Assembly (NCBI GenBank): GCA_012026655.1
Contig: JAAILG010001386.1
Span: forward strand, 1 to 64,000
DNA: 64,000 nucleotides
Direction of reading: 5' to 3'
Source of the DNA: Hydrolagus affinis
Lineage: Eukaryota
In this document: piece by piece, positions 3,098-63,379 of the stretch
Layout: each line of letters starts with the position of its first letter
Position numbering within the stretch: position 1 is the first letter of the stretch
Notes under the pieces: generated by a model
The model's database searches: none
Told to the model about the DNA's origin: nothing
The model's input: only the letters and a program-made list of their open reading frames with translations
Translations under genes and position numbers: made by a program

Positions 3098-3275
3098 ATA
3101 ATAATAAGAAGAACCCTTGCATTTGATATAGCATACAGCACCTTATCACATTGTTACATCATACTCTTCACAGAGTATACTGCAAATGAACTGACGTATA
3201 TTTTGTGGGGGAAACGCAGGAGCTAAATCACACAGCAGTGTCCCACAAACAATTCACCAATTGTCTAACAACCTG
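3098..3275 (-). mobile_element. 3' part of tRNA-SINE split by the Harbinger insertion
   Basis: SINE tail and body end at ...ctaacaac-CTG; the SINE continues after the transposon at 6229. Confidence 0.8.
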
Positions 3276-3490
3276 GGGCCATATCCATGAAACCTTACTA
3301 AGCCTAGTTGGTTACTAAAAAGGCCTGTAGTTGCTTACTAAGCCTAGTTGGTAACTAATTGGTATTCATGAAACATCACTAGCGTTAGTTACATTCTAAG
3401 TTTCGTACTAAAGTTAGTGTTGACCCAGGGTAACTCTAAATCACTAGTTAGCAACTATACCATTTTACCACTGACCACCGACGTGACAAC

Positions 3491-4513
3491 ATGGCCAGAA
3501 GAATCATGGAATTGGTAGAACTTCGTCGTGCTATGCGAAGAGAACGCATATTCTGGGACAGGAGGAACCCAATAGACATATTTAGCGATGCACAGTTGCA
3601 ACAGCGATACAGATTTTCCTGGGAAGGGATAATGCAAATCACAAACTTAGTTGCGCCCGATATTGAACATTCCACAAGGAGGAGCTCCGCCCTTCTACCG
3701 TATCAACAAGTCCTAATTGCACTACAATATTATGCATCAGGAACTTTCCATATGCTCGTAGGGGATCCACTCCAAGTATCCCAACCCACAGCTTGCCGAG
3801 CCATTCATCGAGTTACCAATGCTCTGTGTAGAAAAATTAATGACTTTGTGAAATTCCTGGATGAAAACAGCTCAGCTGAAATTAAGGATGGATTCTTTGA
3901 TATGAGAGGCTTTCCAGGAGTAATTGAATGTGTTGATGGAACACACGTATGGATAGTAGCTCCTCATGAGAATGAAGTAGACTATGTTAATAGAAAAGGA
4001 TACCCCTCTATTAATGTCCAAGTTATCTGTGATCATAGAGGGAAATTTATAAACATAGTGGCACAATGGCCTGGATCAGCACATGAAAGTAGAATTATTA
4101 GGAACAGCCAAGTATGGGACATTATGGAAGCTGGAATGGTTCACGGCTGTATCCTAGGTGACAGCGGATATCCGTGCCGCAATTGGTTGATGACGCCCCT
4201 CCTGCATACGCAAACTGTTCAAGAACGTCGCTACAAGTCGGCTCATAAAGGCACAAGAGTATTGGTGGAACAGACAATTGGTAGATGGAAACGCAGATTC
4301 CATCTCCTACATCTACAAAGTCGAATGAGAAACCCAGAGTCCACTTGCCGTGTTATAGCTGCAACAGCAGTCTTACATAACATTGCCATAGATAGAAATG
4401 AAGCCCTGGGTGAAGACATTGCACCAGGCCGGGAACAACCACAGCATAAAGACTACAATGGTCAATTAAATGTCCCAAGAACAAGAGCAGTGCTGATTGC
4501 AAATTGGTTTTAA
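3491..4513 (+). CDS. Harbinger (HARBI1-like, DDE_Tnp_4) transposase, 340 aa, intronless
   Basis: Motifs RYRF, L.YYASG, VSQPT..R, FPGVI.CVDGTH, NRKGY.SINVQ..CD, WPGSAH, LGDSGY, LMTP, R..VEQTIGRWKRRF, AVLHN; catalytic D/D/E present; good Kozak context aacATGG. Confidence 0.95.
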   Translation: MARRIMELVELRRAMRRERIFWDRRNPIDIFSDAQLQQRYRFSWEGIMQITNLVAPDIEHSTRRSSALLPYQQVLIALQYYASGTFHMLVGDPLQVSQPTACRAIHRVTNALCRKINDFVKFLDENSSAEIKDGFFDMRGFPGVIECVDGTHVWIVAPHENEVDYVNRKGYPSINVQVICDHRGKFINIVAQWPGSAHESRIIRNSQVWDIMEAGMVHGCILGDSGYPCRNWLMTPLLHTQTVQERRYKSAHKGTRVLVEQTIGRWKRRFHLLHLQSRMRNPESTCRVIAATAVLHNIAIDRNEALGEDIAPGREQPQHKDYNGQLNVPRTRAVLIANWF

Positions 4514-5029
4514 TGACAATCTTATAACCAACTACATGTTATCTGACATTTTGTTTCTGAATGACAATTTACTTAAAATGAGAGACATGTATATATGCTA
4601 TTGGCAATAGAGAAAGAAACCATCTTTATTCTACATTATGTTTCAAACGTCTTTCTTGAAAATAAGGTATCATGATATTCAATGATGTTTAAACAGACTT
4701 TTAGCACAACAACTCTTCATATCTTGAATGGTCAACATTTGTCATGTGATCAAGTAAAATGGGTCGTTTGTCGCTTATATTGATTTGGAGATGTTAAATT
4801 CTTTTTGTATGTCATTGTTTTCAGAGGGAATATTTTTTCATATCTCAAGAACAGTAACTCCAATTTGATGAAGCTTCAGCAAAATAAAGCTAATTGTGTT
4901 TTACATGTGACACTTGAAAACTAATTTAAAATAGGTTGCCCGGCAAAATACTTGATTTCCTTGATCACATCAAATTGGTATTTGATTATCAGCGCGTATG
5001 AACTTTTAAGTTATGAGCTTTTAAGCTAT

Positions 5030-5837
5030 TTACAAATTGAAGAACACTCCATCTTCATTATGCACAGTTGACTGTCCTACTTTACGTTTTAACAGTTCAA
5101 TTTCTAGCTTCAGTTTTTCTTGTTTCAAAAGCAAGTTCTCTCGCTTAATCAAAGCATTGTCACGTTCAATGTCAATGAGTTCCTCAAATGACTTATGCTG
5201 CTGCTTCTGTTTTTTTGATGCTGGAATGAAACTCTCAGACGATTTGGAGGTTGATGGTGTTTGTTCCTCTAAACCTTCCTCTTCTGCAGGTAGCTCATCC
5301 ATGTCATCGCCTGTAAAACCAGTCAATATAAATAAAAACAAAAAGCATGTGATCGTTGCATATGAGTAGTGTTTCTGCAAATATTGTGCGAGAATATCCG
5401 TATTCTTTATTATTGTTTTAAATGTAAATATGTCAAATTTCCTTTATTTAAAATGTATCCATTATTTGTTAATGCTTGTCCAATAATGTTGACTATTTAC
5501 GTCCCCAATAACTAACATTTAAGATATTGTAAAACGAAGGGAAAGAGGGACCTTGTGTAGATATAGTCCAAGTATAAAAATGAGTATATAAATGGATATT
5601 AATTATGTAGGTCTAATTCACTCACCTTCATCCTCACAAGATATTTCTCTTGTATTTGGTCCTGCTNNNNNNNNNNNNNNNNNNNNNNNNNNNNNNNNNN
5701 NNNNNNNNNNNNNNNNNNNNNNNNNNNNNNNNNNNNNNNNNNNNNNNNNNNNNNNNNNNNNNNNNNTCATACTTGTCTGCCAAAAAGAGATTCTCTTCTT
5801 GAGAATAATTTGCCTTCCTTGGCCTTTTTGTAGCCAT
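5030..5837 (-). CDS. Harbinger accessory Myb/SANT-like (trihelix, MSANTD/NAIF1-type) DNA-binding protein, spliced, partly hidden by gap
   Basis: ATG at 5837 gives MATKRPRKANYSQEENLFLADKY (RKxNF/YSxxE motif). Upstream exon ends 5626 (GAAG|GTGAG); phase-1 intron 5311-5625 with acceptor ttttacag; terminal exon 5310-5030 encodes an acidic linker, KKQK and coiled coil ENLLLKQEKLKLEIELLKRK. Confidence 0.8.
5667..5766. other. Assembly gap (100 N)
   Basis: Run of N inside the Myb-like gene. Confidence 1.
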
Positions 5838-6228
5838 GTTTGGTAACCTAGCTATATATGCAATTGCTAGAGAATTTGATTTTGATTCACTTACATGCAG
5901 TACACTATACCACATATAGGCCTTGGTCCAGTTGTTTGTATGCTAATCCATGCAAGTGATGGACATGGATTAGCCTAATACACCTGTCACACCATTGTAT
6001 CTATTGTCATCACATTCCATATATGCCCATTCCACCCAAAAGCACCCAATTCCAGTTACTCAAGTATGCAACTAAATTCTCCTAGTATGTAACTAGTTAG
6101 CAAGGTTCTTAGTAAGGTTTCATGAATTACAATTTAGTTGTCAACTCCATAGTTGGCTACTAGGCATTTTAGTATCCTATTAAGGCCTAGTTGGCTGCTA
6201 AGTTAGTAAGGTTTCATGAATATGGCCC

Positions 6229-6365
6229 CTGGTTCCTACTCACTGCTAGGTAAATAATGGAGTGTGGAGTAAGCAAACTTGCCTAAGGCTTTGCCCTGCC
6301 CGGGAATCATACCAGTGTCCTCTCGCTTGTGAGGCGAAAGCTCTGACCAATGTACTACAGGATCC
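6229..6365 (-). mobile_element. 5' part (tRNA head) of the SINE split by Harbinger
   Basis: CTG-gttcctactcactgctaggtaaa...ctacaggatcc is colinear with intact SINE copies. Confidence 0.8.
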
Positions 6366-11360: not shown

Positions 11361-12862
11361 TATTAAGTTCAAGGTAGGATAGATGCTACTCAAGGCAAAT
11401 TTTTCAGAAACTTTCTCTGTGAATAGAGCCTGATACAAGTGATTCGTCCATTGCAATTCATAGCTGAGGTAACTAATGAGGCTCATACCAAAAAATTGGT
11501 TTCAGCGGATATCTGTGAATGCGGCCCACACAAGCAAGACTCATCGATCACAGTTATACCACAATAGCTATGCTACAACGTGCGCTGTCTAATCTCTATC
11601 TCAAGTCACAGTCTGATTTTCTGCAGGTGTCATTTGCTTGGCTTTTATCAGCAGCAGTGAGTTTCAGCAATCTGTGCATCTGCCTCCGCAGGGTTTTAGG
11701 TTGTAGTGAACACTTATAATTTACAGTAAAATAACTTGAAATGAACAATTCAGCAATCAAAGCAGCTGTCGTCTTTTATTCCCACTTACAATCCAGCACG
11801 TGTGAATTTAAAAATAGCCTCTCCCTTATACTAAGCACCTAAAGAAGTTAGAAGGGCTCAAAAATAGAACTGTATAATTGTGCAAAGTTGCATGAAGCAA
11901 ACATACATGAACCAAATGTGCGATTTCCAGGAAACAAAATCATGCAAAAGTAGCTGCGAGACAACTCAAAATTAACCTCAGGTGTGTGTTATTCCACTAA
12001 CCTCGGCTCTGCACTTGGCATCTGTGAACCTAGTCCACTGTGTAAGAAATGCAGGGAAAACAGCGTTCTTATAAAACAGCAACATAGTAAAAAGAGCTCA
12101 CAATGGAGTCACTGCAGAACCACTAGGTTAAAGAAGCCATGCTGTGGGCTGTCCTGACATCACTTGAATACCTGTAGACCAGCCTGAGGTATAAATTTGG
12201 GTTCCCACCCTCTGATGCTCACCCTCTTCTCTTGTGCTTACTCTCTCCGTCTCTTTGCAACAACAACTTCCATTTATATAGCGGCCTTCACGCAAGATAG
12301 CGTCCCAGAGTGCTCAATTGCTCATCTATTGAGACTGAAGCAGGTAATGAATGTAATGGTGTTAGACTATGGAAAGTTTGTACTGTCTGGCTTGAAGACA
12401 AACCAGAACAAAAGTATGGAACGTTTAATAACTGACAGTGTAAGTGAGCATGAGACATCTTAATTGTTCAATTTCAGCAGTTGTTTTAGTTGAATGAAGT
12501 CTTGCTTTGTTGCTCTGTGCAAATTATAAGATTGCCAACTGGATTAAATTGCCACCCCTGATTATCAATGGTGTTCACTCTCACATGACTGATGAATGTG
12601 ATACCAGTCAATAATGAGTAAAATCGTTATTCCCATCAGGAAACGGAGGTAATGGAACTTTAGGCCTATCCTAAATGTTGCTGAGAGTACAGCTTTTCTT
12701 TTAAGATCGGCTTTAAATAGGTGGCCTAACCTGACAGGACTTAACATGACAGCTCCAGTGGCTCTTTACTTTCCACCATGTCCCCCTCCTTTGAAGGCAT
12801 CTTCATTCAATTTCCATGATCATTGAATGCTACCTGTGCATAGTCCTATACCAATACTTTTA

Positions 12863-13385
12863 GGTGCCAGCCTAGTTCAGTTGGTAGCAGTCTCTTCTTT
12901 AAATCAGAAGATTGTGGGTTCATGCCCCACTGGAATTTGAACTCCTATGGTCTTGGATTGCACTCCAATGCAATGATGGGGGAATTATTGCATTGTTGGA
13001 GGTGCTCATTCTTCACGGAACAAAGTCCCATCTGTCTGTTCAAGTGGATACTAGAGATCCGAGAGCACTACTCTGAAAGAAAAAGATTTTTCTTCTGGTC
13101 TCCTGGCTGACAACCCAGGTAGCAAGCCCACGTGGGGCCCATATGGGCATGGATCCAACCCAATTTGTCCCATATGGCGCCCATATGGGCTTGCTACCTG
13201 GGAATAACCCAGATAAAAATTATCATTCACTTCATGGCTGTTTCCAGAACATTGCTGCGTACAAATGAGCTGCTATGTTTGCCTACAAATACAGTCACTG
13301 CACACGACAGTAAATCCAGTGAAGTACTTTGAGGTTTCCTCCCAACATGAAAAGTGCTGTATTAAATCCAAGCATTATTATTATT
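12863..13385 (+). mobile_element. Old tRNA-headed Deu-type SINE, interrupted by a MITE
   Basis: Head tagttcagttggtagc...gtgggttcatgcccc, Deu-like core, L2-like tail ending ttattatt. Confidence 0.7.
13114..13202. mobile_element. 89-bp MITE with CCCAG...CTGGG ends (EnSpm/CMC-like)
   Basis: 17-bp perfect TIR CCCAGGTAGCAAGCCCA extending imperfectly to ~34 bp; AA on both sides (2-bp TSD). Confidence 0.8.
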
Positions 13386-13697
13386 TGCTATAATAGATGA
13401 GTATCTCAATGAAATGTTTGAGGTATTTCTGGGTCCCCCTGTAGCACACATGGATCAGATTATTTTATTCTGAAACATGATGGGATCTTTGATGTCTCTA
13501 CGTGGTTACACCAATTCCTTCACAAAAAACAGCACCTTGGGAAGTCCTCCCAATGTAAAAGGCGTCACACAAATGTAATTTTGCATTTTTGTATCTTTAC
13601 AAACAACAACATCAACAAAATTACATTTATAGAGCACCTTTCACATTGGAAGGATGTCCCAAACAAAGTGTGATTAATATATTTGCAGCTTCAAGGG

Positions 13698-14560
13698 AAG
13701 GGTCAATAGAAAATTGTGGAAATATTTGCCAAAAATTCCGAGTGAGGGGATTGATTGATTGGTGCTATTGAGAGGTACACTTTACTGCCAACCCATGTTT
13801 TTTCACTTTATTGATAAAAACTAAACATGATGAAATAACACATATCGGGATGTAGCAAAACAGTTTATTAATACTTTCTTTAACAAAACTGTGTGGCCTG
13901 CTCACTCGTGGGGTGGGAGGGGGGTGGGCAGCAGTGGGGGGGAACACCAAAGCAGATATCCACCCAGAAGCTCACCACCTCTTATCTCTCAGGGCCCACC
14001 ACTGCACACAGACACAGAGACCCAGAGAGAGACGTATACGCACAGACAAAGAGAGACACACACTCATAGACACAAAGAGACACAGGCACATACCCACACA
14101 CAAATACACACACACACTATATTCACAGACAGGGAGAAACACACATGCACACATATACTTATAGATACAGAGAAACACTCATGCATACAAACTGAACAGA
14201 GAGAGACACAGAGGCACATTCACATGGACACTGCCAAACGTACATATGCATATAGAGGAGGGAGACATATACAGACAAACTCACACAGAGACACTCACAA
14301 ACACACACATACAGAGGAGAGAGACACACAGACGCGGTCAACAGCGAGGCCTCAGAGTGGAGCGAAGCCCATTTCCCACTTGCACTGCACATGCGCTTTT
14401 TGAGCTGCACGCAGAGACACAGGTGCCAAGGAAACTTTATTTGATACAGATTTTCAGTGGAGAGCGCTTGTTTATAGAGGAGGGGAGATATTTATTGCAG
14501 AGGTGTTTTTTTTGGCAGATTCCACGGAAAAATTATGGCAGCACTTTTCTATCGGCCCGG
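13698..14560 (+). mobile_element. Non-autonomous DNA transposon (hAT-like termini) carrying a degenerate CA/GA satellite, copy 1
   Basis: Ends aagggtcaatagaaaa / ttttctatcggcccgg; internal sequence shared with 48513-49342; degenerate (cacacagaga)n core ~14004-14332. Confidence 0.65.
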
Positions 14561-18128: not shown

Positions 18129-18228
18129 NNNNNNNNNNNNNNNNNNNNNNNNNNNNNNNNNNNNNNNNNNNNNNNNNNNNNNNNNNNNNNNNNNNNNNNN
18201 NNNNNNNNNNNNNNNNNNNNNNNNNNNN
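18129..18228. other. Assembly gap (100 N)
   Basis: Run of N next to a G-rich tract. Confidence 1.
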
Positions 18229-21699: not shown

Positions 21700-21855
21700 T
21701 GGGGAATCCTGTAGCTCAGTAGTTAGAGCACTTGCTTTACATGCAAGAGACCTGGGTTCAATTCCAGGCAGGGCAAAGCTTTGGACATGTTTCTTTGCTT
21801 CACATTTCTGATAATAATCCCTCAACAAAAATAAAAAATTGGTCATTTCAGCCTT
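21700..21855 (+). mobile_element. tRNA-SINE head, short subfamily
   Basis: ggggaatcctgtagctcagtagttagagcacttgctttacatgcaagagacctgggttcaattcc. Confidence 0.85.
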
Positions 21856-37816: not shown

Positions 37817-38124
37817 AGAGTCCTGTAGCTCAGTGGTTAGATCACTCGCCTTGCAAGCGAGCAACCTGGGTTCAATTCCCAGCAAGGAGAAACCTTTGGC
37901 AAGTTTCCTTACTCCACATGTCTGATAATATTCCCTAAAAAAAAACAATAATAAATTGATCACTTCAATCCATGACTGTTTGTGGGATACTGCTGTGCAC
38001 AATTAGCTGCCGTCTTTCACCCACAAAAATGTTCAGTCAATACATTATATCCTGTGAAGCTCTTTGAGATGTCTTGAAGTTGTGCTAAAGCACTATATCA
38101 AATGCAAGAATTACTATTATTATT
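37817..38124 (+). mobile_element. tRNA-Ala(TGC)-headed SINE, short subfamily, well preserved
   Basis: A box TAGCTCAGTGG, anticodon arm CTCGC-CTTGCAA-GCGAG, B box GGTTCAATTCC, (TTA)n tail. Confidence 0.9.
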
Positions 38125-48512: not shown

Positions 48513-49342
48513 CAGGGTCAATAGAAAAATGCAGACATATTTTTTTTAAATTGCAGACGCTTTGCAAATCTTGCAGGAAATTGCAGGGCTTTGCTAAATG
48601 TGGGGGGGAAATTGCAGGGGTGGTTTGTGCTATTGAGGTACATTTTACTGCTAGATTTTTTAAACTTGATTAGAAACTAAACATAAGGAAATAGCATGTA
48701 TTACATTGTTGCAAAAAATTATTAATTGCTTCTTTAACAAAAACTGGGTGGACATTTTTTTCTTGGGTGGGGGGATGGGTACAGGAGCTCATTACCTCCT
48801 GGCTCTCAGGGCCGGCAATGCACACAGACCCAAAGACCCAGAGAGAGACACACACACACACAGAGAAACAGGGAAAGACACGCAGTCTCACAGACACACA
48901 GAGACACACATTCAGGGACACAGAGAGACACACATATTCAGAGACACAGAGAGTCAAACTCACAGACACAGCACAAACTCAGAGACCCAGAAAGATACAC
49001 ACACTCAGACCCAGAGAGACACACATATTCAGAGACACACTCACAGATACACACACTCACAGACACAGAGAGACACACTCACAGATACAGACAAACACAC
49101 TCACAGACACAGAAAGATACACTCACAAACACAGAGACACATACTCAAAGACAATCACAACCGCAGGACGGTTCTGAGCTTGGCCTTTTGCTGCCCCGCT
49201 CAGAAGCGTCCAGAGTCGTTCTGCCAGAGTGTTCCTTCGGGCCAGAAAATACACCTATGACAGGTTTTGTAGCACACGGGGAATGTTGTAGTAGAAAATG
49301 TGGTGCGGCCACACTTTTCTATTGATTTACGTTGTGACCCTC
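48513..49342 (+). mobile_element. Non-autonomous hAT-like element with CA/GA satellite, copy 2
   Basis: Starts cagggtcaatagaaaa; ends cacttttctattga...ccctc; colinear with 13698-14560. Confidence 0.65.
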
Positions 49343-50537: not shown

Positions 50538-53292
50538 TAACATAACAACGTAAGAAATGCTAGACAAGAAAAGATCAAGGTCCATCTGGTTCCCCTTCCG
50601 CCTTCTGGTCGCATGCATATATGTCCTAAACTGCCAATCTACTATATCCCATAATGTTATTTCCTACCAGAAAACCATCTAATGTGTGTTGGAAAGAATG
50701 AACACTTCCTGCTTCAACCATCTCCCAAGGGAGGCTGCTCCATAGGTTTACTATTTACTCATTGAAATAGTGTTCTGAATTTACCCCCACTTCAATTGCA
50801 GGCTCTGTTCTCTGGTTCTCCTATTCTGTACATTGAAACAGCCTGTCTTGCCCCTTTACTATCCTAAAGACAGCAATCATGTCACCTCTCAATCTTTTCT
50901 TTTCCAGCATGAACATGCCCAATTTACTTAGTCGCTCCTCATAGTCAAGTCCTTCCATTTCCTCAATCATGTTTAGTTCTCCTCCGTATCTTCTCAATTT
51001 ATCCACTATAATTTTTATACTGTGGCAACCAGAACTGTTCACCATAATCTAGGTAAGATATGACCAATGATTTATACAATGACAGGATTACCCCACTATT
51101 TTGGCTTGTTATTGAGCTTTTGATACATCCCAATATTTGGTTGCTTTACTCACTACCATAGAGCATTGTTGGGAGAGCTTCAATTTATTGTCAATCAGGA
51201 CTTCCAGGTCCTTTTCATTTTCTATGCATATTATTTTCCTTATGTTCAAATAATAGTCCCTTCCAGGATTTGTGTCCCCGTACAAAGTACTTTACATGTC
51301 TCCACATTGGATTTCATCTGCCACTGATCTGCCCAAGTATATTTAAATCTTCCTGTAACCTATCTTGTTCAGCTTTGCAATCTATCACCTTCATTAGCTT
51401 GGTGTCATTTGCAAACTTAGCCACTGTACTTGTGACTCCTAGTTCCAGATCATTTATAAAACTATTAAACAAAAGTGGTCCCAAAACAGGAACTTCACTG
51501 GTAACATTTTCCCATTTTCCCATTTTTCCCTGTACCACAGGGAATTTCTGGTCAACCAATTGCATATCCAATGTAATATATCTCCACTGTTTACCACTTA
51601 TTCTACTTTCAGTACCAGCCTCTTAAGAGGAACTGTATCAAAGCCTTAGTGAAATCCAGATATACAACATGCACAGCCTTACCCTTATCAAGCTCCCTTG
51701 TCACTCTATCAAAGAAAACCAGTAAATTAGATTGGCAAGATCTTCCCTTCATGAACCCATATTGTCTATCATTTATGATTTTATTTCTGTCCAGATGATC
51801 CATGATTTTATCCTTAATAAGAGTCTCCATAATTTTACCCACAGTGATCAACAAACTTACTGGTCTGTAGGTTCCTGGGTCACTTTTGTTACCTTTCTTA
51901 AAAATAAGAGTAATATTTGCCTTTCTCCAGTCCCCATGAACCCCTCCAGTATTCAGCCACTTTTGAAAGATGTGTGCCAGCATTTCTGAAAATTCCTCCC
52001 TTGGTTCCATAAGGATCCACAGATGCAATTTATCCAGCCCTTGAGATTTATTTACCTTAAGTTTACACATCTGTTTGGCAACCATGCTGTTAGTGATATG
52101 AATAGTGTTAGAACTTTTCTTTGGTTCATCCTTGAATTCTCTTTCCAGATCAAATAGGTTACCTGTCTCCACTTTTGTAAAGACTAATACAAAAAATGTA
52201 TTTAGCACTATTGTAGCCTGTGCAGCATTATTTGTCATGGTGTCTCATGAACCCACCCTTAGTGACCTTATTCCATCACTTGTTTTCCTTCTACTCTTAA
52301 TGTAACTAAAAACCTTTTTTGTTATTATTCTTCACATATTTTGCCATGTTCAATTCAAAGCTTTTCTTTGCCATTCTGATGCCTTTTTTTTTGCAGTTCT
52401 GGCATGTCTTCCATTATTGAGTCTGACTTATTTCCATGCCATTTTCCTTCATGGCCTTAAATGAGTTTTTTTCCTCTTTATGATTTGGTTTGTAGCCCCA
52501 TCCAACCACACAGGAGTACCATTAAGCTTGGTACCTTTGCCCCATATGAATACTTATTGTTCCATTGCCTTCATAATTACCTCCTTGAAGATCCTTCATC
52601 CCCATTGTCATATTTAAGCCTGCCAGGCTCACTCCGACTAGATTTCTCAAGTGTACAAAGGTCATTCCTCTTAAAATTTGGTAGTTTTGTTTGGGTTTTT
52701 ATAACCTCACCAAATCTTGTGATGCCAAATGTGATTGCACTGTGATCTCTGTTAAGAGATCATTAAGAGCTTAATGCTTCCCCCACTTTTATGTTGGAGA
52801 TTGTTTGCCCGCATTGCTCATTATCAAATCCAAGATGTTATCTCCCCGTATGGGCTCCTTTACAAACTGAGTGATAAAGTAGTCTTCCTTTAACTCCAGA
52901 AACATCTTCCGTATCTTACCAGTAGACATATAATTAACCCAATCAATTTTGGGTAAGTTAAAGTCTCCAACCACTATGGTTGGTCCCTTACTAGTAGCCT
53001 TTCTTATCTCACCTCACAGTTCCAGATCAATGCTTTCACCCTGGCATGGGGTCTATAGCAGCCCCCCAGTAATAGCTTACAACAACAACAAAATTACATT
53101 TGTTTAGCGCCTTTCGCGTCAGTTTCCTTACCCTTGTCACCATCTTTTAATTCTACCCAAAGTGATTCTACGTCTGTCTTTTCCTTTATGATGTCCTCTC
53201 TCACTTGTGTCTCAAAACTGTAGCATATATGTAGTGCCACACCACCTCCTCTTCTCCCAATATGGTCCCTCCTAAACACTTTATAATCTTCC
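50538..53292 (-). mobile_element. Long decayed CR1 LINE (APE endonuclease plus RT, frameshifted)
   Basis: YKVFRRDHIGRRGGGVAL, VGDFNLPKIDW, DNILDLIMSN, YRPVSLLITVGKIME, QYGFMKGRSCQSNL, VYLDFTKA, LGPLLF..FINDL, KFANDTKL, RLRGDMI in correct order across broken ORFs. Confidence 0.95.
53080..53122 (-). mobile_element. 43-bp L2 3'-end insertion inside the CR1 endonuclease region
   Basis: acaacaacaacaaaattacatttgtttagcgcctttcgcgtc; CR1 coding (GKET|KLLLG..YRP) resumes across it. Confidence 0.75.
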
Positions 53293-53592
53293 AGAGGTGG
53301 TGGAAGGCTGTATCGGTCATGGAGCAGATATGAGGGAGGAAGGACAGTTCGGGGGTCAAACAAGATGCCCAAATTCCTGACTCGCTTCGAGAGGTGGAGA
53401 GAGCAGCCTTGAATGCTGATGTTGTCAGCGCCTGAGATGCGGAGGCTTTGACACGAGCCAATCAGCAAGGTCTCCGTCTTGTTGACGTTGAGTTGGAGGA
53501 AGTTGGCCCTCGTCCAGGATTCAATGTTGCACAGGACGCCAGTATTCCTGGAGTCGAGGGTGGACGCGGAAAGGAGGAGTTGGGTGTCATCC
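53293..53592 (-). mobile_element. L2 RT internal fragment
   Basis: DDTQLLLS...WTRANFLQLNVNKTETLLIG...VRNLGILFD. Confidence 0.9.
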
Positions 53593-55365
53593 AAATACTG
53601 TTTCAATTAAAATTTTGTGGTAGATTGTTCCAATAAGACCATTCAAGTTGCTAAGAATCTCAACTTTATTTGTAACATTCACTTTCTGCTTCTTTTCTTA
53701 AATTGTGATTATTTGTTGAACATTGCTGCGTACAAATTGGCTGCCACGTTTTGCCCACAAAATGCAGCCATTGCTTTACAGTGTAACAACAACAACAACA
53801 AAATTGCACTTATAAAGCACCTTTCATGTCGGGAGGACGTCCCAAAGCGCTGAACAGTCAGATCGGGACCCGAGCGGTGGGGGAGGGTCTGGGTAGGGGG
53901 AAGGAGAGGGGAAAAGAGTTAGTGGGGGAGCTGAAGGCACAGTCGAAGAGGAAGGTCTTGAGACCGGCCTTGAAGGAGGAAAGGGAGAAAGCAAGGTGGA
54001 GGGGCTGCGGGATGGAGTTCCACAGTGTGGGAGCAGAGCGGCTGAAAGCCCGACCGCCAATGGTTGGGCGGTTAGGGCGGTGGATGTGGAGCAGGCCTGA
54101 GTCTGCTGAATGGAGGGCGCAGAGGCAGGCTGATAGGGGGACAGTAGATTAGAGAGATAGGCAGGGGCAAGGCCGTGAATGGCTTGAAGGTGAGGACAAG
54201 GATTTTGAATTCAATCCTCTGGGGATGGAGAGCCAGTGGAGATGGGCGAGGGTGGGAGTGATGTGGTTGCGGAGCCTAGTGCGGGAGAATACATGAGCTG
54301 CAGAGTTTTGAATGTTCTGCAGCCTGTGAAGGAAGGAGCTGGGAAGGCCGATGTGGAGAGAGTTCCCTTAGTCGAGGCTAGATGTGACGAAGGCATGTAT
54401 AAGTGTTTCGGCAACGTGGGGGGTGAGGTAGTGGCGGAGTCTGGCAATATTGCGGAGGTGGTGGAAAGCTGTACCGGTCATGGAGCGGATATGAGGGAGG
54501 AAGGACAGTTCGGGGTCAAACAAGACGCCCAGATTCCTGACTGGCTTCGAGAGGTGGAGAAAGCAGCCTTGAATGCTGATGTTGTCAGGTGCCTGAGGTT
54601 AAAGTGTCCAAGCGCTTAACCTGTGAAGCGCTTGGACACTTTTCAACACCGTGAAAAAGGGCTTATATCAAATACAAGGATTATAAATAAAAGCAAAGTC
54701 AACACATGTTGATGATCATTACTTGTGCAAAGCAATCACTGCACTATGTTGTTGCTGTAAACGTATCAATGATACAGCATCCCTTGATTATTGAAGGAAA
54801 GATAGTTCAGTAAATCGAACCAACCAAAGAGTAACACAAAATGAAATGCACCATTGGTTTTCATTCATGGTAGTTGAAGAACCACACAACAACATCATTA
54901 TGGTCGTGGCACCTTTCATGTCGGGAGGGTGTCTCAAAGTACTTCATAGGATTTAACTGCAAAGTGTAATTGACTATATATTTCAGAACGTTCAACTGTG
55001 GTGGGTATCAACGTGGACTGGAACCCATACCACAGCACAAGATTTGGAGCGAAAAGTACAGTAAATGTACTGATATAGTGCAAATGTTGACTTTGCTTTT
55101 ATTTATAATACTTGTATTTGATATAAGTGCTTTTTCACGGTGTTGAGAAGTGTCCAAGCGCTTCATAGGTTACAATGTAAAGCAATGGCTGCATTTTGTG
55201 GGTGAAACATGGCAGCCAATTTGTACACAGCAATGTCCCACAAATAGCCACAATTTAAGAAAAGAAGCAGAAAGTGAATGTTACAAATAAAGTTGAGATT
55301 CTTATCAACTTGAATGGTCCTATTGGAACAATCTACAAGAAATTTTAATTGGAACAGTATTTGGA
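53590..55365. repeat. Inverted duplication: left arm 53590-53787 + 54617-54704, right arm 55085-55365
   Basis: Arms are reverse complements (about 15 differences in the first 198 bp, counted by eye) and include unique sequence flanking a SINE tail. Confidence 0.9.
53788..54597 (-). mobile_element. Relatively young 5'-truncated L2 (tail type A), CpG-rich
   Basis: (aac)n tail, 3' stem-loop, L2 ORF2 C-terminal coding; inserted at TAAC in the left arm of the inverted duplication. Confidence 0.9.
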
Positions 55366-63062: not shown

Positions 63063-63379
63063 AATAATAATAATACTCCTTGCATTTCACATATCACTTT
63101 TCACATCTTCTAGACATCTCAAAGCACTTCACAGAATATACTGTAAAGTGAATTGGCTGTATATTTTGTGGGTGAAATGCAGCAGCAAATTGTGCACAGC
63201 AGTGTCCCACAAACAGTCGTGGATTGAAATTGCCAATTTATTATTGGTTTTTTTTCTTGAGGGATTATTATCAAGTGTGTGGAGTAAGGAAACTTGCCCA
63301 AGGTTTTTCCCTGCCAGGAATCAAACCCAGGTCTCTCGCTTGCAAGGCAAGGTCTCTAACCACTGAGCAACAGGACTCC
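63063..63379 (-). mobile_element. tRNA-SINE, short subfamily, full length
   Basis: Complete head ...ggtctctcgcttgcaaggcaaggtctctaaccactgagcaacaggactcc and (TTA)n tail. Confidence 0.9.

Follow-up and report, generated by a model that had tools for sequence, protein, structure and literature searches.

A two-gene Harbinger transposon of the CWG-targeting type, probably young but disabled, in the chimaera Hydrolagus affinis

The window is the whole analysed stretch of 64,000 nucleotides from Hydrolagus affinis (GenBank assembly GCA_012026655.1, contig JAAILG010001386.1, positions 1 to 64,000 of the forward strand). At 3276–6228 it contains a two-gene, cut-and-paste transposon of the PIF/Harbinger-ISL2EU-Spy (PHIS) superfamily, of the CWG-target NuwaI / Harbinger3_DR type. 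The nominal length is 2953 bp, with an assembly gap of 100 N counted as drawn; the true length is estimated at about 3100–3300 bp after allowing for the gap. Terminal inverted repeats (TIRs) of 26 bp are present at 3276–3301 (plus strand, GGG first) and 6203–6228 (minus strand) and match at 25 of 26 positions. Target-site duplications (TSDs) of the CWG type, CTG on the plus strand, adjoin them at 3273–3275 and 6229–6231 (direct reading and empty-site test). An intronless transposase gene on the plus strand and a spliced Myb/SANT partner gene on the minus strand converge between the ends.

The element interrupts an old short interspersed nuclear element (SINE) with a tRNA-like head, on the minus strand. 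The 3' part of the SINE is located at 3098–3272 and its 5' part, comprising head and body, at 6232–6365 (self-BLAST and SINE alignment; bounds approximate). For the empty-site test nine SINE copies were aligned, four of which belong to a short variant without the insertion-site stretch. Flanks joined with one CTG align gap-free to all five window copies spanning the site; joined with zero or two CTG, they require a 3-bp gap. The test is paralogous, employing other SINE copies of the window, and concerns one insertion only. The locus is a single real insertion into a SINE. A 1-bp duplication of T with GGGG termini yields the identical empty site, and a single copy does not tell the two readings apart; the choice falls on CTG with GGG termini, this being the pattern published for NuwaI (PMC4482050, as far as its available text goes). 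No further copies or MITEs (miniature inverted-repeat transposable elements) of the element were detected by self-BLAST in the window outside 3276–6228.

An assembly artefact, either contaminating invertebrate DNA or two copies joined over the gap, would suit an element that spans a gap and has invertebrates as its closest named relatives. It is exceedingly unlikely, as each half continues gap-free into one half of a single host SINE, and the two SINE parts line up again colinearly when one CTG is placed between them. The host SINE copy differs from the other copies inside the duplicated triplet; drift had probably made it usable as a target by the time the element arrived. About 20 nt from the insertion point (~3245–3255) it is also devoid of some 70 nt of the long SINE variant.

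The target site, AAC-CTG-GTT, is palindromic. It matches the palindromic, CWG-centred consensus of Harbinger3_DR, as given in the available text of PMC3016246, at 10 of 15 positions, the central seven exactly. An equal or better score is reached by 69 of the 2254 CWG sites in the window; the core AC-CWG-GT occurs at two of the 2254, the insertion site among them. A target preference in common with Harbinger3_DR, judged from a single site, thus has modest support. The preliminary description had spoken of a site-preferring transposition system, and the signal agrees with this.

Subterminal repeats are present at both ends. The left array (3294–3460; k-mer counts, shuffles) consists of repeats containing ACTA/TAGT and holds a 25-bp direct repeat (starts 3294 and 3334) and a degenerate inner TIR copy (~3357–3381). 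The right array (6040–6202) includes an exact 19-bp inner TIR copy at 6109–6127. ACTA/TAGT words number 25 at both ends together, against a mean of 10.1 and a maximum of 19 in 1000 dinucleotide shuffles, the word having been picked post hoc after the k-mer counts were viewed. The arrays are likely to be binding sites for the Myb partner, judging by Harbinger3_DR, in which the Myb protein attaches to a subterminal motif of 9 bp and conveys the transposase into the nucleus (reported in the available parts of PMC9710019 and PMC9179366).

The transposase gene occupies 3491–4513 on the plus strand. It is an open reading frame (ORF) of 340 amino acids (aa) without stop, identified by ORF reading, Pfam, alignment and a predicted model. 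The product matches Pfam DDE_Tnp_4 (E 2.9e-33) and has 424 matches at E ≤ 1e-20 in a protein search. The catalytic triad D149/D224/E260 is complete: among homologues with a residue at the position, D149 is kept in 120/120, D224 in 115/118 and E260 in 118/118. In the predicted model (mean predicted local distance difference test score, pLDDT, 79) D149 lies in strand 144–155, D224 directly past strand 220–222 and E260 in helix 243–269. The model has an RNase H-like transposase fold, its best match being piggyBac (Z 10.0, root-mean-square deviation (rmsd) 4.7, 233 residues aligned); Tn5 transposase gives Z 9.7, rmsd 5.6 and 237 aligned. Foldseek with the model returned nothing at E ≤ 0.001. VIA-align returned general DDE folds only, with no Harbinger among the 50 matches listed, which does not count as evidence of absence. 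The lone plus-strand AATAAA of the spacer, at 4883–4888, is the candidate poly(A) signal of this gene.

The partner gene begins with ATG at 5837–5835 on the minus strand. Its visible parts, all on that strand, are the gene start at 5767–5837 (23 codons, encoding a basic N-terminus and the first helix of the Myb domain), the 3' end of the exon before the intron at 5626–5666 (13 codons and one base), a phase-1 GT-AG intron of 315 nt and 28% GC at 5311–5625, and the last exon at 5030–5310 (acidic linker, conserved leucine-rich segment, terminal VFFNL). The assembly gap, a placeholder of 100 N at 5667–5766, separates the first two. The intron donor is AAG/GTGAGT and the acceptor TTTTACAG/G; the frame is open through to the stop at 5032–5030. 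The lone minus-strand AATAAA of the spacer, at 4625–4630, is the candidate poly(A) signal. The two candidates (4625–4888) lie past each other; the two convergent transcripts would share about 260 nt and might pair into double-stranded RNA.

Pfam gave no match with the visible Myb pieces alone (last exon; first piece as 23, 33 and 58 aa). A search with the last exon among 1.84 billion representative proteins found 17 proteins, and two full-length ones among them, P0215 and P0217, carry Myb_DNA-bind_5 (E 2.6e-14 and 7.7e-12). The first codons in the window are identical to P0215 at 15 of 20 positions and to P0217 at 9 of 20; the score of the N-terminal match is 81, whereas 290 unrelated proteins score no higher than 33 and 2000 shuffles no higher than 40. 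The N-termini of P0215 and P0217 are independent evidence, having played no role in the search that found both proteins. Because both visible ends match Myb_DNA-bind_5 proteins, the convergent gene is, by homology, a true Myb/SANT partner. By alignment the gap is estimated to hide about 85–100 residues, among them some three quarters of the Myb domain; this exceeds what 100 N could encode. Another protein, P0202, has 88% identity across the last exon, and its similarity extends into the intron, there in a frame shifted from that of the exon; a close family copy thus exists elsewhere and the intron is non-coding. Partner proteins have a strongly conserved leucine-rich C-terminal segment (window 5033–5200, minus strand), covered by no Pfam model, and many of them terminate in an aromatic-x-L motif. 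The segment is a candidate for dimerisation or transposase binding.

The matched TIRs, the CTG duplication, the uninterrupted transposase with its DDE triad, the convergent gene with in-phase splice sites and the two-gene PIF/Harbinger type had all been recognised in the preliminary description and are confirmed here. Its term 'structurally complete' is not upheld: most of the Myb domain is hidden in the gap, and conserved columns of the transposase are altered, as detailed below.

Assignment to PHIS/PIF-Harbinger follows from a DDE transposase alignable with Harbinger, a Myb/SANT ORF (recognised through relatives) and TIRs with a 3-bp TSD. The NuwaI group is defined by a CWG TSD, GGG termini, TIRs of 12–61 bp and a DDE plus a Myb/SANT protein (Han et al. 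2015; PMC4482050, available text). The window element has a CWG TSD, 26-bp TIRs starting with GGG and D/D/E in strand, past strand and helix; its placement in NuwaI is one of structural features, the tree described below containing no named NuwaI sequences. PIF/Harbinger in the narrow sense of Han 2015 is ruled out by the TSD, which is CTG and not TWA. NuwaII is ruled out by the site, AAC-CTG-GTT and not C/TNA/G. Domesticated genes of HARBI1/NAIF1 type are argued against by TIRs and TSD intact inside a SINE.

The transposase departs from its homologues at near-invariant sites, defined as the 54 columns conserved at ≥90% across 120 homologues. Four of the 54 are changed: P123L, G146E, D199E and N249K. 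L123 occurs in 0/118 homologues, E146 in 0/120, E199 in 0/117 and K249 in 1/117. G146E is located three residues ahead of D149, inside the first catalytic strand of the model; D199E alters the HD motif. The 13 closest relatives have 0–3 departures each at the same columns. Further private changes are R22W and R44W. Differences from 12 close relatives are present at 13 of 217 well-conserved columns, and four of these 13 (V20I, R22W, R44W, P123L) are explainable as CpG transitions. The observed/expected ratio of CpG in the ORF is 0.56.

Four changes over 126 nonsynonymous sites correspond to 3.2% (0.9–8.1%), and the divergence of the copy is probably about 1–3%. In neutral simulations without indels the frame stays open in 58, 34 and 19% of runs at 1, 2 and 3% divergence, and with 5% indels in 38, 15 and 6%; at 15% neutral divergence it stays open in none of 2000 runs. 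An open ORF is thus expected at 1–3% neutral divergence and marks youth, not function. The surrounding SINE copies are 10–36% off their majority (crude alignment), and the repeats of the window have a median identity of 74% over 206 self-matches of ≥100 bp. The copy is therefore recent and far less decayed than the LINEs (long interspersed nuclear elements) and SINEs around it, as first described. The faster clock in the available text of PMC5499810 is 1.0–1.1 × 10^-3 per site per million years (My), with an alternative rate slower by a factor of about six; on the faster clock 1–3% corresponds to roughly 10–30 My.

Taken together, the locus is probably a young but disabled copy, known from one insertion, of an autonomous-type CWG-targeting Harbinger. 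Several points weigh against this. Four or more departures at the 54 conserved columns are shown by 15 of 107 full-coverage homologues. In a leave-one-out comparison among the 12 close relatives this copy stands at 6.5%, within a range of 1.7–7.4%, and those relatives include probable dead copies. D199E is a conservative substitution. Once 10% indels are allowed, the frame has a chance of only about 2% of staying open at 3% divergence, which would suggest a younger or selected copy. The window holds a lone copy, in which family-level and private changes are not directly separable, and most of the Myb domain is hidden in the gap.

An intact, still active autonomous element, whose odd residues are family-specific and tolerated, would account for the open 340-aa ORF, the intact triad, the canonical splice sites, the 25/26 TIR match, the identical TSDs and a departure count inside the range of the relatives. 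It would also have to carry four residues that are all but absent from about 118 homologues, including Gly-to-Glu near D149, two Arg-to-Trp changes with codons typical of CpG decay in an ORF depleted of CpG, and one TIR mismatch, and it is considered improbable. Host selection on a domesticated HARBI1/NAIF1-like gene pair would likewise keep the transposase ORF open; the genes are adjacent, and co-domestication from single insertions is recurrent according to the available part of PMC9710019. Fresh TIRs and TSD, the interrupted SINE, changes at the most conserved columns and an open ORF that is expected at such an age without selection make domestication highly unlikely. The preferred reading remains a young, disabled copy.

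The best transposase matches have 71–79% BLAST identity and are followed by Lineus and Gigantopelta. Over aligned columns the window transposase is 72% and 71% identical to Lineus longissimus (P0006, P0008), 68% to Gigantopelta aegis (P0010), 58% to Nymphon striatum (P0015), 44% to hagfish and 37–43% to six bony fishes. A tree of 50 rows was built from the window and 49 of the 120 homologues listed (the top 20 matches and selected named matches). It places the window within a clade of 16 rows (100/100) that has no named vertebrate; its species-named rows belong to Lineus, Gigantopelta and Nymphon, the other 12 being unnamed or the window itself. P0006, P0008, P0010 and P0015, annotated as 'putative nuclease HARBI1', are in this clade (100/100); they are known here from protein alone and are too distant for a donor. 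Among the 13 closest relatives, three clade motifs are found in 8, 9 and 10 proteins; none of the three occurs in the supplement of fish, coelacanth and amphioxus Harbinger proteins of PMC9179366, in which a general motif occurs 13 times. Among short, broken transposase relatives 89 matches were obtained, none above 75%. No donor-level match was found in the transposase protein searches, whose relatives reach about 79% at most. The approximately unbiased (AU) test rejects a grouping of the window with seven named vertebrate sequences (p 3e-65). This rejection alone shows no transfer, because Harbinger families are old paralogues.

Published surveys bear on the distribution. In the available part of PMC9179366 Etchegaray et al. 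report no Harbinger in elephant shark. Han et al. searched Callorhinchus milii and reported PHIS to be absent from sharks and coelacanth (PMC4482050, available text). Such negatives are soft, because Etchegaray et al. contradict the absence from coelacanth. PIF-Harbinger is listed for whale shark in the accessible text of PMC8455134; in that of PMC4350176, DNA transposons are said to be very scarce in chimaera genomes. DNA transposons evolve neutrally in vertebrate hosts and persist mainly through transfer, according to the available part of PMC7070016; 72% identity across the vertebrate–nemertean split is then hard to keep by descent, and transfer is the more economical explanation. On these protein comparisons, horizontal transfer from a marine invertebrate is plausible, yet short of proof. 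Horizontal acquisition, as raised in the preliminary description, is favoured by 68–72% identity to Lineus and Gigantopelta against 37–44% to vertebrates and lacks a match close enough for a donor. The fuller proposal, that an undescribed CWG-targeting Harbinger family crossed from a marine invertebrate into a holocephalan lineage during the past few tens of My, is tentative.

The rival to this step alone is vertical inheritance, by which a long-standing Harbinger lineage of chordates would have remained active in this fish lineage with few copies and escaped earlier surveys. Harbinger families are ancient and not confined to single species (PMC9179366, available part), the superfamily is listed for whale shark, no transposase relative exceeds about 79% in a search that returns a sample of relatives, and the 12 clade rows that are unnamed or the window itself could include fishes. 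The named members of the clade are all invertebrates, the named vertebrates are far less similar than Lineus and Gigantopelta, and persistence mainly by transfer is the reported rule in vertebrates; descent is judged rather unlikely. Beside the clade of the window, in a neighbouring clade, the hagfish protein P0021 (Myxine glutinosa) nests with three Lineus proteins (100/100; 72% to P0019). By its position in the tree, it forms a second marine vertebrate–nemertean pairing.

The following course of events is proposed. The Myb/SANT partner would bind the subterminal repeats and carry the DDE transposase into the nucleus, as shown for Harbinger3_DR. The transposase would cut at the GGG ends and insert into palindromic AAC-CWG-GTT with a 3-nt stagger, by which CTG was duplicated. 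The element would have landed in the old SINE copy and undergone about 1–3% neutral drift; changes at conserved transposase residues accumulated, with no stop yet, and activity was presumably lost. The family would most likely have come into the holocephalan lineage from a marine invertebrate, a step held with about even confidence.

The rest of the window consists of old repeats. Two families of tRNA-headed SINEs share about 140–190 bp of their 3' end at about 70%; ARAGORN calls one head as tRNA-Ala and one as tRNA-Val. The only Rfam matches, four tRNA matches at 757–814, 21708–21772, 37824–37884 and 63310–63374, are SINE heads and not tRNA genes. The SINE body presumably resembles a CORE domain. 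Of three L2 fragments compared with the SINE tails, two have no BLAST match at E < 0.01 and the third is possibly an embedded SINE piece. CmiSINEs and SacSINE1-CM occur in C. milii, and CmiSINEs, which are specific to holocephalans, were not found in the sharks, skate or bony fishes examined; they are described with a tRNA-Ala-like head, a CORE domain in the body, an L2-derived tail and a 3' end of about 160 bp common to a second, older SINE family (PMC5499810, available text). By this description, with no consensus compared, the window SINEs fit CmiSINEs in the tRNA-Ala head and the shared 3' end. The SINEs flanking the element suggest a holocephalan host, which is judged likely.

A CR1 reverse-transcriptase fragment is present at 51612–52244 on the minus strand (RVT_1, E 2.7e-10; 38–54% identical to turtle, bird and other CR1 proteins). 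It is vertebrate CR1 and shows no more than this. Its tail presumably resembles chondrichthyan CR1. Nested L2-like and SINE fragments at 53097–54704 adjoin it. No host genes were found: searches with 95 of 103 long and 145 of 376 short non-repeat frames gave the reverse-transcriptase match and one sub-threshold match, the transposase region and simple-repeat frames having been left out of the long-frame search. An element of 89 bp at 13114–13202, with a perfect 17-bp terminal inverted repeat, lies inside an old SINE copy of the second family (12860–13390) and has no other copy in the window. Its ends presumably resemble those of Spy-type MITEs. Its flanks do not form AAATTT, the Spy target (PMC4482050, available text). 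A second gap of 100 N, at 18129–18228, adjoins a G-rich repeat. Degenerate, (CA/GA)-rich simple-repeat tracts at 13965–14328 and 48782–49141 are related (68% alike) and give long spurious open frames.

As to mechanism the element brings little that is new: for Harbinger3_DR, the need for two proteins, the CWG target and a working reconstruction have all been published. The preliminary description had proposed reconstruction as a site-preferring transposition system; for Harbinger3_DR, of the same group, a reconstruction already exists and shows activity in vertebrate cells (PMC3016246, available text). The significance lies in the distribution record: the closest named relatives of this young copy come from a ribbon worm, a snail and a sea spider. 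What may be new is that it occurs in a chimaera, by way of marine horizontal transfer. No chimaera Harbinger family is described in the literature consulted; a description could lie in subscription journals, in Repbase Reports or in some supplements. A young copy would make transfer from marine invertebrates to chondrichthyans directly testable. If true, transfer would overturn the reported absence of Harbinger/PHIS from elephant shark and add to the sharing between nemerteans and fishes. A consensus would then provide a second two-protein transposon that is adapted to vertebrates and targets palindromes; it would be about 40% identical to the Harbingers of teleosts and would allow target-site rules to be compared. 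An active consensus could serve structural work, as no Harbinger transposase is among the structure matches listed.

Harbinger transfer into a marine vertebrate is already on record for Harbinger-Snek of sea kraits (PMC8437027, available text), which likewise has marine invertebrates as nearest relatives. Harbinger-Snek has an invertebrate match of about 90% at the DNA level and a massive expansion; the best named match of the window element is 72% at the protein level. With the NuwaI group it has in common a DDE_Tnp_4 transposase of about 340 aa and a Myb_DNA-bind_5 partner, a likeness of description and not of sequence. Its nominal 2953 bp fall inside the range of 1154–8497 bp listed for NuwaI; the 23 families listed in the available part of PMC4482050 are from bony fish, oyster, sea anemone, Daphnia and beetle, with no cartilaginous fish. 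HARBI1 and NAIF1 belong to the same two protein families and are domesticated, whereas the window locus keeps fresh TIRs and TSD and shows conserved-site changes. The nearest known system is zebrafish Harbinger3_DR, named NuwaI-2_DRer by Han et al. (PMC4482050, available text). Likened by description and not by sequence, both have the two-protein design, a palindromic CWG-centred target, subterminal repeats and a transposase of similar size (343 aa in Harbinger3_DR, 340 aa here). They differ in the TIRs (12 and 26 bp, respectively), in length (4204 bp and an estimated 3100–3300 bp) and in state, Harbinger3_DR being demonstrably active and the window copy probably disabled.

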